Origin: Nitrosopumilaceae archaeon
Lineage (GTDB): Archaea; Thermoproteota; Nitrososphaeria; Nitrososphaerales; Nitrosopumilaceae
Length of the DNA stretch: 64,000 nucleotides
Assembly: GCA_965207375.1 (NCBI GenBank)
Contig: OZ242274.1
Location: 1,760,001-1,824,000, forward strand
Direction: 5' to 3'
Notes under the pieces: generated by a model
The model's input: the letters and a program-made list of their open reading frames with translations, nothing else
What the model was told of the DNA's origin: nothing
The model's database searches: none
Part shown: in pieces, positions 3,856 through 59,584 of the stretch
Layout of the letters: every line of letters begins with the position of its first letter
Position numbering within the stretch: the stretch's first letter is position 1
Position numbers and translations under genes: made by a program

Positions 3856-3888
3856 TATAATGATTCTTCAGCATTATCTGTTAGATAG

Positions 3889-6724: not shown

Positions 6725-6806
6725 GTACTTGTTCACATAATAGAATTAATTTGTACCCAGATGGTGATGTAATGATTGAAAAATTAGGAACGAGGTGAAC
6801 AAGTAC
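6725..6806. repeat. 82-bp MITE-like repeat with perfect 12-bp terminal inverted repeats (empty copy)
   Basis: GTACTTGTTCAC (6725-6736) and GTGAACAAGTAC (6795-6806); interior matches 9565-9628 and 59505-59584. Confidence 0.9.
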
Positions 6807-8860: not shown

Positions 8861-8968
8861 ATGAACCACGATGAGAAGGAAGATCCTGAAATGAAAGAAC
8901 TTGAAAAGGAAGTAGAAAAAGGATTAAAACGCAACAGCATTGTACATAACCTGCTTCATGATCTTTAA
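8861..8968 (+). CDS. 35-aa charged peptide, putative antitoxin of the Doc toxin
   Basis: MNHDEKEDPEMKELEKEVEKGLKRNSIVHNLLHDL*; overlaps the Doc start; TATA-like CTTATAA ~25 nt upstream. Confidence 0.6.
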   Translation: MNHDEKEDPEMKELEKEVEKGLKRNSIVHNLLHDL

Positions 8969-9545
8969 TTCTATAACTCCAAAAGAAATTATCTACATCC
9001 ACAAACTTGTTGAAAAAAGATTCAATTTACCATCTGGTCACATTAAAAACGGCGAACTAGAAACCCTTGTTTCCAAATGCTACAAGATACCATTTGCCAA
9101 AGAACGAACCGATGTCCTTGAACAAGCGGCGATTTTATTTGAAGGAATCATTCGACTTCACATATTCATTGATGGTAACAAAAGAACGGCGTTGGAAACC
9201 ACTCGTGTGTTTTTAAACCGTAATGATTGCATACTAGTAGTACCATTAAGTGGCGCTAATTTCATCTATAAAATTGCACAAAATTGTACTTCAGATACAG
9301 AGCAAATATTGTCTAAAATCACCAATTGGTTGAAATCACATACTGCAAAAAGAAATCAACATTACAAGATAAAGGGATTGTTAATGGTTCACTTTTACCT
9401 GCCACTATTTACAATACGCTTTTTTACAAAAATTAAACTGCGGAGATGTGGCAGATGGATTATCAAAAAATATCTTACGAATAAAGATCCACAGATCACA
9501 GAGTTTATGCTGGAAATTTATGAAAAACAATTAGATTTATTTTAG
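8958..9545 (+). CDS. Fic/Doc (death-on-curing) family toxin
   Basis: HIFIDGNKRTA Doc-type motif. Confidence 0.88.
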   Translation: MIFNSITPKEIIYIHKLVEKRFNLPSGHIKNGELETLVSKCYKIPFAKERTDVLEQAAILFEGIIRLHIFIDGNKRTALETTRVFLNRNDCILVVPLSGANFIYKIAQNCTSDTEQILSKITNWLKSHTAKRNQHYKIKGLLMVHFYLPLFTIRFFTKIKLRRCGRWIIKKYLTNKDPQITEFMLEIYEKQLDLF

Positions 9546-9684
9546 ATTCGTGATTACATTAGATGTGCTTGTTCACTTCATGTCTAATTTTTTAATCATT
9601 ACATCACCCTTTGGGCATAAATTAACTCCCATATGAAAAATCCCTTGGCTACGTGCCGGATCCTATACAGCGTGCATTTGCAGA

Positions 9685-10815
9685 TCAGGACATCTTTGCT
9701 AGGTCATCTAATCTATTATGTTTTCTCTGGGTCAGCTCACAATTCTGTGTTCTGTATTCTTCGTTGTTAGTCAGCATGTACCAAATTATCTCCAGCATGT
9801 GTCGCGCTACTGCAACCTTTGCCTTTTGTGCACCGTGTCTCTTTTTTATTCTCTCGTAGATTCTTTGCATTCTGGGATCATGCTGTATGGTTATTGTAGC
9901 TGCCTCAACTATGGCGTTTCTCATCCATACTGAACCCTCCTTTGTTATTCCTCCTCCTTTGTATGTGGATGCACTGTTACGGTGTGATGGTATTACGCCA
10001 CCTCCTGCAGCAAACTTTTCTGCAGTAGAATATCTTGTAATATCTACAAGCTCAGAAATTATTGTAAATGCTGTAATGTGTCTGATTCCTGGTATCGTCA
10101 TGAGCAGTTTTACTCTATCATCATCTTGTGCTATTTGTGCCATCTTTTGTTCTAGTTTGTTTACCTGTGCAATTGAAGTGTTTATGCATTCTAGATGTAT
10201 GTCCATTGACATGCGGTCTATTTCTGATATTGGCATACTTTCTAACCATTTCATTCCTTTTTTTGTAAACGCCCCATTGGTTGGGCACGTATAGTCATAT
10301 CTGGCAAGTATTGCATGGATTTTGTTTCTATGTCGTGCACCGTCTCGTTTGCATCCGCTTCTGGTTCTGACTAGATTCCTTAGATCTCTATAGTACTTGT
10401 TAGGTACAAAAGACTCGTATATCATGTCTGATTTTAATAAATCAGTTAGTATCTCAGAATCAAGCTTGTCGTCTTTTAGCTTGGCCTGTGCTATTATCTT
10501 CGTCTTTGCAGGATGTGCAAGTATTGTATCTATTCCCTCGTCTTCTAGCTTGTCATGTAATCTTATCCAATAGTTTGCAGTGGATTCACAGACTGCTCTT
10601 GCAGTGTCATTGTATGTTTCCTTTATGTGTTTGATAAAACCTGTTATGCCTTTTGTGTCGTTTGAAAATGTAATCTGTTCTAATTTCTTTTTGCTTTTAT
10701 CATTTTTTATGGTTGCAACACATTGTTTCTTGTGAACGTCTATTCCGATGTTGATGATATCATCACCTCCTTTTTGATCAAAATTTGTGGACTTGACCTT
10801 GCGGAATACTCCCAT
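9685..10815 (-). CDS. IS110-family DEDD recombinase/transposase (true start may be ~50 nt downstream)
   Basis: GIDVHKK, VCESTA, KDDKLDS (DEDD residues); LMTIPGI; HRNSAS (Tnp serine region); ITKEGS; KAKVAVAR. Confidence 0.95.
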   Translation of the reverse strand: MGVFRKVKSTNFDQKGGDDIINIGIDVHKKQCVATIKNDKSKKKLEQITFSNDTKGITGFIKHIKETYNDTARAVCESTANYWIRLHDKLEDEGIDTILAHPAKTKIIAQAKLKDDKLDSEILTDLLKSDMIYESFVPNKYYRDLRNLVRTRSGCKRDGARHRNKIHAILARYDYTCPTNGAFTKKGMKWLESMPISEIDRMSMDIHLECINTSIAQVNKLEQKMAQIAQDDDRVKLLMTIPGIRHITAFTIISELVDITRYSTAEKFAAGGGVIPSHRNSASTYKGGGITKEGSVWMRNAIVEAATITIQHDPRMQRIYERIKKRHGAQKAKVAVARHMLEIIWYMLTNNEEYRTQNCELTQRKHNRLDDLAKMS

Positions 10816-10911
10816 TCACCATTCATCAAAAACGTGGTATTTTGTTGTCCGCTTACTGTGAGCTAGTCTATTACTCACCTTCATACGAGGTATTGTTAAT
10901 TCAGCCCTCAG
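10801..10911 (-). ncRNA. Putative bridge/seek RNA (target-binding loop 10856-10911, donor-binding loop 10801-10852)
   Basis: Manually folded stems enclose AAUUAAC and GUAAUAGA, which match the two insertion flanks, and AUGGGA, which matches the circle junction. The true RNA ends are unknown. Confidence 0.75.
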
Positions 10912-10984
10912 ATCCAATATAATCAGTACGTAGCCGTAGGAGAAAAATTTTTCATATAACGTCTATTACGTAAACAAGCACGAA

Positions 10985-11510
10985 CCCTTGAGACCTATGC
11001 TGCCATGCGTCGTGTTTCATAAGTTGGCCTAAATGAGCTGATGTCTAATATTGCATCTTGCACCTGCAGATCAGGTGGTATGTCTCTTGGACTTGCAGTA
11101 TAGTACCGTGGCCTTTTTTGATACTACACAAAACTGTAGTGATTTATCTAGTCCTATGATATCACACGTGATAGACACTGCACTCATTTTTTGTCTTCCT
11201 CCAACGTTTTTTTTAAAGCGTCATTTGCCACTGCATACTCTCCTATTATCCTCTTAAGGGAGGAGATCTCTTTTTTGTGACGTTTGGCAAGCGATGATAT
11301 ATCAGAGTCGCTAAATGAGCTTTTGCCTGCTTTTAGGAACTTTTCCTTCCAGGCATAGACTGTTCTTGGTTGCAGGTTGTGCTGTCTGCATAATTCTGCC
11401 ATACTGGTTTCAGAGTTAAAGGTCTGTAACACGATACGTACCTTCTCATCTGTGCTCCATTTTGATTTTTTGTTCATATTTTGTATGGCCTCCTAGCGTG
11501 GTCCGCACCA
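10985..11510 (-). mobile_element. IS3-family remnant: intact OrfA (11184-11477) and degenerate OrfB start
   Basis: OrfA KWSTDEKVRIVL...AELCRQHNL....YAWK HTH; OrfB fragment RPTY*TRRMAA; probable TG end at 11510. Confidence 0.85.
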
Positions 11511-12728
11511 CTTTATCTGTTCTATTGTAAGCTTGTCGATTTTAACATTTGATGATTTTAATGCCTTTTTGGCTATTGCAGTATCGATACAAGCAGGAAC
11601 TTCAAGAATCTGGTTGGGTAGTTTTTTGTAGTTTTTAAAAAGATGTAAAATGGACAAAAGTTGGTTCGAAAAGGACTGATCCATGACTTCTGGAGGATGG
11701 CCTTCTGTGACTGCAAGATTTGCCACTCTGCCTTTTGATACCAGAAATATCGTCTTGTTATTTATGATACATTTGTCAAGACCAGGACGCATATTTTTGA
11801 CATATTGTGACCTGTGTAAAAGAAATTTTGCATCAACCTCAACATCAAAGTGACCCACATTGCCCACAACTGCGCCGTCCTTCATGGATTCAAAATGTCT
11901 TTTGGAAATCACATTAACCATTGCAGTACATGTAATGAAAATATCACCAATCTGTACAGCACGGTCCATCTGCATGACACCATATCCGTCCATGTGTGCC
12001 TCCAAGGCCCTGATTGGATCGACTTCGGTAACTATCACCCTTGCACCCATTGCCTTGCATCTTGATGCAACACCCTTTCCGACCCAGCCATAACCTGCCA
12101 CAACTACTTGTTTTGCAGCAAACAAAAGATTCATGGCACGAAGATAGCCATCAATCGTGCTCTGCCCTGTACCGTATCTATTATCAAATAGATGCTTTGT
12201 GGCAGCATCATTTACTGAAATAACCGGATAGCGCAGTTTGCAGGAATTTTGCAGTGCCTTTATTCTGTTTATTCCGGTGGTAGTCTCTTCGGTGGCACCA
12301 ATTATGTCCAGATCAGAAAATTCAGGATTTTTATGTATCATAATGCTAAGCTCTGCGCCATCATCAGTTACAATGTCAGGCCTTTGTTTGAGTACATTAT
12401 ACACGCACCAAGCAAACTCTTTTTGTGTCTGATTTGACCATCCAAAAACTGTAATTCCTCTAGATACCAAAAATGCTGCAACGTCATCCTGAGTCGTCAA
12501 CGGATTACCAGCTGATGCAACTACCCTAGCACCAAGCTCTTTTGCTCCAATTAACAGTACTGCAGTCTCTTTTGTCAACTGGAGACAAAATCCAAGCGTA
12601 AGACCGTAGAGCGGTTTTGATTTTTTAAGCCTGTGTATTGTATCATCTAAAATTTTCATATGCGCGCGTGCCCACTCGTAGGATAATTTGCCCTGCCTTG
12701 CTAATTTTGGATCTTTGATTTTACTCAG
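11493..12728 (-). CDS. ahcY: Adenosylhomocysteinase
   Basis: NPLTTQDDVAA, TEETTTG, KHLFDNRYGTGQS, GYGWVGKG, GHFDVE, GHPPEVMD. The frame extends upstream to CTG 12728 (SKIKDPKLARQGKLSYEWA). Confidence 0.95.
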   Translation of the reverse strand: MSKIKDPKLARQGKLSYEWARAHMKILDDTIHRLKKSKPLYGLTLGFCLQLTKETAVLLIGAKELGARVVASAGNPLTTQDDVAAFLVSRGITVFGWSNQTQKEFAWCVYNVLKQRPDIVTDDGAELSIMIHKNPEFSDLDIIGATEETTTGINRIKALQNSCKLRYPVISVNDAATKHLFDNRYGTGQSTIDGYLRAMNLLFAAKQVVVAGYGWVGKGVASRCKAMGARVIVTEVDPIRALEAHMDGYGVMQMDRAVQIGDIFITCTAMVNVISKRHFESMKDGAVVGNVGHFDVEVDAKFLLHRSQYVKNMRPGLDKCIINNKTIFLVSKGRVANLAVTEGHPPEVMDQSFSNQLLSILHLFKNYKKLPNQILEVPACIDTAIAKKALKSSNVKIDKLTIEQIKWCGPR

Positions 12729-59504: not shown

Positions 59505-59584
59505 GTACTTGTTCATCTAGTGCTTAATTTTTTAATCATGACATCACCATCTGGGTACAGATTAACTCTTACGTGAACAAATAC
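59505..59584. repeat. MITE-like repeat, empty copy with a degenerate 8-bp TSD
   Basis: GTACTTGTTCAT ... GTGAACAAATAC; flanks GAAAAAAA and GAAAAAAT. Confidence 0.85.

Follow-up and report, generated by a model that had tools for sequence, protein, structure and literature searches.

Among the insertion sequences (IS) of the IS110 family, IS621 is described as possessing a bridge RNA laid out as a stem, a guide, a stem-loop, and a second guide, with one target loop and one donor loop (PMC11208158). The insertion of family members into repeats is also established: IS621 and ISPpu9/ISPpu10 enter repetitive extragenic palindromes (REP), and IS4321/IS5075 together with the attC group enter mobile elements (PMC11208160; bioRxiv 10.64898/2026.03.19.712850; PMC12288879). 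In Archaea, 662 homologs of the IS110 recombinase were catalogued in 2,835 genomes (bioRxiv 10.1101/2024.06.21.599552), and IS110-family transposases were tabulated in Sulfolobus islandicus (PMC3718332). The accessible parts of the literature, including PMC13343696, PMC3189936, and PMC3718332, contained neither an archaeal bridge RNA with its target nor an IS110 element aimed at a MITE (miniature inverted-repeat transposable element), with the reservation that the supplementary tables of PMC11208160 may list members of the clade. Here we analyzed a window of 64,000 nt from a Nitrosopumilaceae archaeon (assembly GCA_965207375.1, contig positions 1,760,001-1,824,000), which window contains an IS110-family element inserted within an 82-bp repeat; and we propose that the element chooses its insertion site by means of a bridge RNA located in its left end and aimed at that repeat, a MITE. 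Plain coordinates refer to the window and those preceded by "C1:" to the archaeal chromosome contig, whereas element sense denotes the strand of the recombinase.

When the segment 9629-10963 was taken out of the window, the flanks 9565-9628 and 10964-10981 became joined as an 82-nt repeat unit, to which the MITE profile aligned over positions 1-82 (E 8.5e-22). The left flank terminates in ...AAATTAAC-TC and the right flank consists of TATTAC plus GTAAACAAGCAC, the 12-nt ends of the rebuilt unit, GTGCTTGTTCAC and GTAAACAAGCAC, agreeing as inverted repeats at 11 of 12 positions. On the plus strand, 9565-9644 reads ..GTGCTTGTTCAC..GGGCATAAATTAAC-TC followed by CCATATGAAAAATCCC.., and 10945-10981 reads ..TTTTTCATATAACG-TC followed by TATTAC-GTAAACAAGCAC. 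Since the TC alone is common to the two junctions (..AAC-TC before CCATATG.., and ..AACG-TC before TATTAC), the core comprises 2 nt, with no longer duplication; and the empty sites, for their part, have a single TC. An earlier note on this DNA, made from the letters alone, had claimed that removal of the element would restore an 82-bp unit with 12-bp terminal inverted repeats, that two empty copies—one with 2 mismatches to the guides, the other with a 2-nt deletion in the target—lay within the window (Table 1), and that the core was TC/GA without any longer target-site duplication; the direct reading, the profile match, and the comparison of empty with filled sites bore out these claims.

Table 1. 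Coordinates of the features of the IS110-family element, of the repeat in which it is inserted, and of related copies; functions of the RNA and its loops are predicted.
Feature	Coordinates	Strand	Description
IS110-family element	9629..10963	-	1335 bp including one copy of the TC core (10962-10963)
Right end	9629..9684	-	56 nt, downstream of the recombinase; terminates in ..ATTTTTCATATGG beside the core; holds ATTTTTCATAT, the sub-terminal inverted repeat with the left end
Recombinase ORF	9685..10815	-	376 aa from the longest ATG; DEDD_Tnp_IS110 and Transposase_20
Left end, bridge-RNA-like non-coding RNA	10792..10961	-	Two internal-loop modules and a long-range closing stem
Target loop, 5' side	10895..10901	-	Putative guide AAUUAAC, antisense to the right-end-side flank (GTTAATT in element sense)
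Target loop, 3' side	10866..10874	-	Putative guide GUAAUAGA (10867-10874), identical in sense to the flank on the left-end side and the GA core; then C, which matches the first base of the left end
Donor loop, 5' side	10840..10847	-	CAACAAAA; the AACA/AACG-type tetramer varies together with the left end's first 4 nt among homologs (by eye)
Donor loop, 3' side	10809..10816	-	AAUGGGAG, equal to ATGG, the right-end terminus, followed by the GA core; invariant in 15/15 aligned loci (by eye)
MITE, left part	9565..9628	+	Profile positions 1-64; ends with the guide-matched AATTAAC, then the TC core (9627-9628)
MITE, right part	10964..10981	+	TATTAC plus the 12-nt terminal repeat
Empty full-length MITE	6725..6806	-	Uninterrupted, 82 nt; target ATAATAGAATTAATT, 2 mismatches to the guide-defined 15-mer (C1:1766737)
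Empty MITE	59505..59584	+	AACTCTTACG, 2-nt deletion beside the core; flanks gaaaaaaa/gaaaaaat, a 7-of-8 target duplication
Second IS110 lineage (L044, L045)	C1:12525-13592, 875850-876914, 610195-611259, 1246084-1247148		Four 1,402-bp copies; protein identity to the window element 31-32%

Three rounds of nhmmer over the whole assembly gave 38, 41, and 41 matches to the repeat; all 41 are on C1, and 26 are full length. In 7 of these 26 copies the 8 nt on both sides are identical, and in 2 more they agree at 7 of 8 positions. The 12-nt end of the MITE, GTACTTGTTCAC, also forms 10 inverted pairs with a spacing of about 1,495 bp, each of which encloses a 456-aa open reading frame (ORF) with an IS66-family DDE transposase domain (PF03050, 1.4e-33); the one pair that we checked, C1:107350/108833, is flanked by an 8-bp duplication. 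Because the 12-bp ends are common to this IS66-family element of about 1.5 kb, the repeat is non-autonomous, as had been supposed from the window alone; and being short, non-coding, and multicopy, with terminal inverted repeats, duplications, and ends shared with an IS66-family element, the 82-bp repeat is a true, IS66-derived MITE. Its copies add up to some 3 kb of the 2.16-Mb C1. Not one of the 41 midpoints falls within an ATG-initiated ORF of at least 120 aa, compared with a coverage of 74% of C1 by such ORFs. A comparison of the 82-nt unit with 25 related genomes yielded matches in only two of them, all of 31 nt or less, the repeat as such not being found outside the host genome.

A REP is a short extragenic palindrome that lacks target duplications and is spread by an enzyme of the REP-associated tyrosine transposase (RAYT) type. 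The classification of the repeat as a REP was ruled out by the 8-bp duplications and by the DDE (IS66-family) parent, RAYT genes not having been searched for, and its candidacy as a C/D-box small RNA was rejected, the Rfam scores being at chance level only. About 8 of the 41 matches share a 2-nt deletion directly beside the TC core (AACTCTTACG; e.g., window 59505-59584, C1:520013, and 579640), and 2 matches lack the core dinucleotide itself (AACTATTACG); both kinds may represent subfamilies or scars.

The inserted element belongs to the IS110 family, in that the recombinase has both the N-terminal DEDD/RuvC-like domain and the C-terminal Transposase_20 domain and the core is of 2 nt without longer duplication. 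The recombinase matched PF01548 (2.6e-21, residues 23-173) and PF02371 (1.2e-19, residues 236-321), and, among the solved transposases, IS621 (8wt6, E 2.6e-13) and ISCro4 (E 9e-11). In the phmmer alignment with 8wt6, the aspartate of GID, the glutamate of CES, and the serine of hrnSas (opposite yeSgs) pair with IS621 residues, the equivalence of that serine to S241 of IS621 being obtained only by hand-counted chain numbering. The non-coding end upstream of the recombinase measures some 150-170 nt, against 56 nt for the downstream one, and both ends contain an 11-nt inverted repeat (ATTTTTCATAT/ATATGAAAAAT) about 2-3 nt inside the core. The ATG of the longest recombinase ORF (10813-10815) is situated within the invariant donor-loop sequence AAUGGGAG, its first 8 codons or so overlapping the RNA, and the Pfam domain begins only at residue 23; the true start may accordingly be further downstream, after the GGAGGTGA stretch. 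With its 376-aa frame, RNA region, and both ends intact, the window copy has the sole uninterrupted full-length frame among the roughly 10 copies and fragments of the lineage on C1.

To characterize the left end we aligned homologous loci, 15 in number, drawn from the host and from other genomes of thaumarchaeal type (protein identity 38-100%), which alignment consisted of strongly conserved blocks parted by two short hypervariable ones, the latter corresponding to the two sides of the first internal loop. The RNAalifold consensus of the 11 distinct sequences has two modules, in each of which a basal stem leads through an internal loop to a distal hairpin, with a long-range stem closing both. 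Within this structure standard pairs occupy 96.3% of the 297 cells and both-sided changes are found in 11 of the 27 pairs; the covariation score was reached by 0 of 500 shuffles, and when the partners were shifted by 1-3 columns as a control, the paired fraction fell to 34-48%. In addition, the first four bases of the left end and the donor-loop 5' side appear in the combinations CGTT/AACG, CACC/GGTG, CACT/AGTG, and CCCT/GGGG, which correspondence was appreciated by eye. The consensus structure points to a conserved left-end non-coding RNA, with predicted target-binding and donor-binding internal loops.

We then compared the variable blocks with the sequences at which the elements are inserted. 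In element sense, the 3' side of the first loop terminates in ..NNNNNN-GA-C, and its six variable bases equal the six flank bases before the GA core on the left-end side at 58 of 66 positions, taken over 11 guide classes from several genomes; the non-cognate pairs averaged 2.5 of 6, and none of 100,000 permutations attained 58. The C after the GA is in most loci the first base of the left end, and resembles the "handshake" bases after the second guide of IS621. The 5' guide is complementary to the right-end-side flank, with longest cognate runs of 2-7 nt versus a non-cognate mean of 2.9, the observed sum being attained by 30 of 100,000 permutations.

Together, the two guides of the window element specify AATTAAC-TC-TATTAC on the plus strand (AATTAACTCTATTAC), which 15-mer is the consensus of the MITE profile at the insertion position. 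The 4.3-Mb assembly contains 2 sites identical to the 15-mer and 7 within one mismatch, all of them inside MITEs; of the 33 sites within two mismatches 13 are inside MITEs, as are 18 of the 335 within three. All 3 insertions of the window guide type are at the same MITE position: the window copy retains both MITE halves; a 515-nt remnant (C1:1557219-1557732) has as its left flank MITE positions 1-64 (E 6.4e-14), with letters that differ from those of the window's MITE at many positions; and for a copy that was split (C1:999348/1007066) the rebuilt site corresponds to MITE positions 37-73 (E 5.7e-7), with a perfect 15-mer. These three insertions are independent events in different MITE copies, and the expectation that insertions would be found at AATTAAC-TC-TATTAC held for 3 of 3 of this guide type, in MITE copies of differing sequence. 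The arrangement is not a product of chance, since there are 41 repeat copies and three independent insertions of the same guide type at the same position in different copies. The earlier note had further spoken of many safe intergenic sites, of which statement the intergenic part stood, with 0 of 41 repeats in long ORFs, but "many" was generous, there being 2 empty perfect matches and 5 more within one mismatch.

The remaining copies of the lineage carry other guides. A blastn search returned a further full-length copy, B (C1:2084645-2085969), with 95% identity and one in-frame TGA; the split copy, whose two parts (C1:999348-1000409 and 1007066-1007355) were parted by an inversion of about 7 kb; the 515-nt remnant; and six shorter fragments. 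B, B2 (C1:1575048), and B3 (C1:561237) have other bases in the guide blocks, and none of them is in the window's MITE family. On the right-end side, the flanks belonging to B, to the fragment at C1:1969390, and to a more diverged end at C1:702573 each terminate in an 18-nt motif (GATTCTTCAGCGTTATCT and variants), which the flank at C1:369135 resembles by eye. Of the 45 occurrences of this motif, all on C1, three are the IS110 sister flanks; the motif is mostly the outer end of an element of about 1.7 kb having a 454-aa ORF with an IS240/IS6-type DDE domain and a SWIM finger. The guides of B fit this IS6-like terminal repeat only with 2 nt skipped, and for the empty site rebuilt for B the genome offered no match within 2 mismatches and, within 4, only two, neither of them convincing. 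We consider it likely that the sister copies are aimed at the IS6-like end, and what these copies show is a change of site along with a change of guide. The finding of other copies of the element in unrelated sequence had been named beforehand as evidence against targeting of the repeat: copy B is literally such a copy, but it has a different 3' guide and a stop codon.

Some further features of these repeats and copies were observed in passing. The 18-nt motif also ends shorter IS6-like derivatives, and is present, among other positions, at C1:2085971, 1969370, 702573, and 369171, and in the window at 3862, 8797, 17730, and 17831. At C1:1682801-1682835 a 17-nt MITE end (GTACTTGTTCAC+ATAAT) adjoins the 18-nt motif of the IS6-like end, about at the IS110 crossover position, which juxtaposition could have arisen either by recombination between IS110 targets of two types or by a nested insertion that has nothing to do with them. 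In the split IS110 copy (C1:999348-1007355) the inverted pieces overlap by 18 nt (query 1045-1062), the break abuts another repeated element, and a diverged IS110 fragment is located just upstream.

We assign a probability of roughly 0.85 to the reading that the window element is an IS110-family IS choosing its insertion site by a left-end bridge RNA aimed at the MITE. Under that mechanism both sides of the first RNA loop would pair with the halves of the 15-nt target AATTAAC-TC-TATTAC (window plus strand), while the second loop would pair with the element's own joined ends, whose circle junction would read ..CATATGG-GA-CGTTATATG..; the exchange at the TC dinucleotide would then allow the element to land in MITE copies without longer duplication. 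By analogy with IS621 and ISPpu10, the RNA would be made, and would be bound by the recombinase, a circular intermediate (in the bridge-RNA group, one with a promoter rebuilt across its junction) would be the donor, and the benefit would consist in safe, multicopy landing sites. The TTATAT with which the left end begins is a candidate archaeal TATA box, and the transcript, on the minus strand, would be expected to start some 25-30 nt inside the left end and to end near 10792. Since the guide 15-mer is the consensus of one MITE position, the landing sites would be in MITEs and hence between genes.

Several results weigh against that reading. Folded as a single sequence, the left end was no better than its shuffles (z 0.20), and an Rfam scan of 9300-11300 (E up to 10) returned no bridge-RNA family, giving only chance-level snoRNA-like and U6-like matches (E 2.6-5.5). 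The 5' guide of the window element is followed by AA, and not by bases able to pair with the core. Copy B, whose guide agrees with its own flank at 3 of 6 positions, indicates that guide and site can disagree. Moreover, the covariation between guides and flanks has by itself no direction, and that the guide determines the site is taken from the IS621 experiments (PMC11208160). Finally, there is one intact copy only, while 2 perfect targets stay empty; a search of sequencing runs for the stretch returned no RNA run, and the assembled contigs of four runs show no joints, such contigs being silent on circles, excision, and expression.

With these points in mind, we weighed other explanations of the same locus. 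If the recombinase recognized the MITE through protein-DNA contacts or through the end hairpin, the matching loops would be incidental; and indeed the MITE as single-stranded DNA folds through its 12-bp ends into a terminal stem (z -3.05), with the insertion point at 6 nt from that stem, and in ISPpu10 a target stem-loop raises the efficiency (bioRxiv 10.64898/2026.03.19.712850). That guides and flanks covary across 11 guide classes whose targets are unrelated (58/66; 0/100,000) is, however, unexpected from recognition by protein or structure, and the sister copies, whose protein is of one type but whose guides differ, are found in other sequences; we therefore hold such recognition as the determinant to be improbable, a structural contribution beside the pairing being possible. 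A simple preference for AT-rich intergenic DNA, where the MITEs happen to be, would agree with the strictly intergenic location of the MITEs (0/41 in long ORFs) and with the AT-rich target, but would hardly lead to three different MITE copies being hit at one and the same nucleotide, nor confine 7 of 7 near-perfect guide matches to MITEs, which make up about 3 kb of the 2.16-Mb C1; we give to that coincidence even less credit. The least credible of the alternatives is that the repeat halves are the IS110 element's own ends, travelling with it as a composite, an idea that the window copy taken alone would allow: of the 41 matches 26 are uninterrupted and full length, perfect 8-bp duplications accompany 7 of these 26, identical 12-bp ends delimit an IS66-family parent, and the sister IS copies lack the MITE halves, so that the halves do not travel with the IS, in keeping with the earlier note.

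Of more weight, though we still deem it unlikely, is the possibility that the element is a relic, RNA-guided at the time of insertion and belonging to a lineage no longer mobile in the host genome. An uninterrupted full-length frame is retained by only 1 of the roughly 10 copies and fragments, the two further insertions of the window guide type are truncated or split by the inversion, the targets that match perfectly (2) or with one mismatch (5) stand empty, and the assembled contigs, the only material covered, showed no joints. In contrast, in the window copy the 376-aa frame, the RNA region, and the two ends are all intact; and a run from another study gave contigs that extend over both IS-MITE junctions, with letters that differ, which contigs represent related filled sites in another sample.

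Other IS110 lineages on C1 were considered in relation to the same bridge-RNA reading. Removal of the second lineage (Table 1) at C1:12525 and at C1:875850 gave matches to MITE profile positions 4-77 (E 3.9e-19) and 7-82 (E 2e-17), respectively, the third copy matching weakly (E 0.0034, from a tiny search) and the fourth not at all. The sites of the two clear insertions (..GTG before CCTAA..) are mirror images of each other, near MITE positions 18 and 52. The left end of the copy at 12525 reads ..TTTTGTGA.. and that of the other three ..GGTCGTGA.., in step with flanks that end in ..GATTTGTG and ..ACGTCGTG; and the guide arrangement is the same in both IS110 lineages. The target 12-mers deduced for the second lineage had, genome-wide and with at most 1 mismatch, 1 of 7 and 3 of 43 sites in MITEs; because these 12-mers are not MITE-specific and the case is built on rebuilt sites, the guidance of the second lineage to the same MITE is suggestive only. 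A third lineage (404-aa frame; C1:625624-626613 and 1528609-1529598) has left flanks that are repeated 2-3 times elsewhere on C1.

As a side observation, then, several IS110 lineages or guide variants in one archaeal genome would be aimed at other transposable elements. Whether the IS110 elements constitute a transposon layer living on other transposons, with guides re-aimed in situ, is a question for which we see the odds as even: one lineage has at least four guide variants, one of them aimed at the MITE and others located at the IS6-like terminal repeat, the second and third lineages are in repeats, and two sisters of the second lineage, near-identical elsewhere, differ in exactly the guide bases that match their different flanks. 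If this view were true, the genome would be a natural record of bridge-RNA reprogramming between close copies, in a domain for which no characterized bridge RNA is known.

Regarding the host, C1 is archaeal: with 2.16 Mb and 46 tRNA genes, it has an rRNA operon that scored best over its full length with the archaeal small-subunit model (1444.9 bits). The contigs C2, C3, and C4, which amount to 2.14 Mb, contain 14 tRNAs, have an ORF density of 0.14-0.22 versus 0.84 in C1, exhibit no megablast similarity to C1, and hold no MITE or IS110 copies; they look non-archaeal, and may be DNA of a eukaryotic host that was binned together with the archaeal chromosome. Since they do not look archaeal, the absence of the IS and the MITE from them is uninformative, and the denominator is C1.

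The closest relatives of the recombinase are in metagenome-assembled genomes (MAGs) labeled Thaumarchaeota, Nitrosopumilus, or Nitrosotenuis. Two copies of an element with 54-56% identity and the same RNA layout (L032 and L036) are in a GC-rich 96-kb contig labeled as a Candidatus Poribacteria MAG, all the other relatives being labeled thaumarchaeal, which placement may reflect either a transfer between organisms or a binning error. Beside the locus, a 201-aa ORF at window 8940-9545 on the plus strand contains, by eye, HIFIDGNKRTA, a stretch which we take to be reminiscent of Fic/Doc proteins; and a 97-aa ORF at window 11184-11477 on the minus strand presumably resembles the helix-turn-helix part of an IS3-type transposase.

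The results support, at the level of sequence, the element as a well-documented further case of the known targeting of repeats by IS110 elements, here with an archaeal host and a MITE as the target; no new mechanism is revealed. With the archaeal rRNA of C1 and the similarity to the IS621 transposase, the proposed analogy to IS621 in REP, here within an archaeon, was supported. What is extended, on the evidence of structure, covariation, and empty versus filled sites, is a bridge-RNA type of target selection worked out in bacteria, which would now include an archaeal IS110 clade; and a known strategy of landing in harmless repeats would here have a genuine MITE and another IS's ends as its targets, in place of REP. 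The sister copies with different guides at different targets would be a natural counterpart of laboratory reprogramming, the two variable left-end blocks may serve within the clade as an annotation rule for predicting the insertion site, and the compact AT-rich recombinase/RNA pairs are candidates for testing as tools.

The IS1111 group, according to PMC11208160, has its RNA in a long right end, a short left end, and sub-terminal inverted repeats of 7-17 bp. Membership of the window element in that group was rejected in view of its 56-nt right end and of the location of the RNA and the long non-coding end upstream of the gene, the sub-terminal repeat of about 11 nt being the only feature that fits. 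That repeat also differs from the 2-3 nt of the IS110 group (PMC11208160). The element nevertheless resembles IS4321/IS5075, inserted in Tn21-family terminal repeats, and the IS1111-attC group, inserted in attC sites, both in its fixed position inside another mobile element (PMC11208160) and in its long sub-terminal inverted repeats, the sister copies at the IS6-like terminal repeat being closely analogous. With IS621 of E. coli and ISPpu9/ISPpu10 of Pseudomonas putida it shares the same two Pfam domains and an RNA in the left end, upstream of the recombinase, with two loops that are here predicted; with these elements it likewise shares a 2-nt core without longer duplication and a target that is a short multicopy intergenic repeat, the targets of ISPpu10 being 97.1% non-coding (bioRxiv 10.64898/2026.03.19.712850) and the MITEs here being in long ORFs in 0 of 41 instances. 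In contrast to IS621, the first guide of the window element is not followed by core-pairing bases, and the core is TC/GA, versus CT in IS621 (PMC11208158); and unlike IS621 and ISPpu9/ISPpu10, the element has an archaeal host and, as its target, not a REP but a transposase-mobilized MITE with 8-bp duplications and an IS66-family parent.

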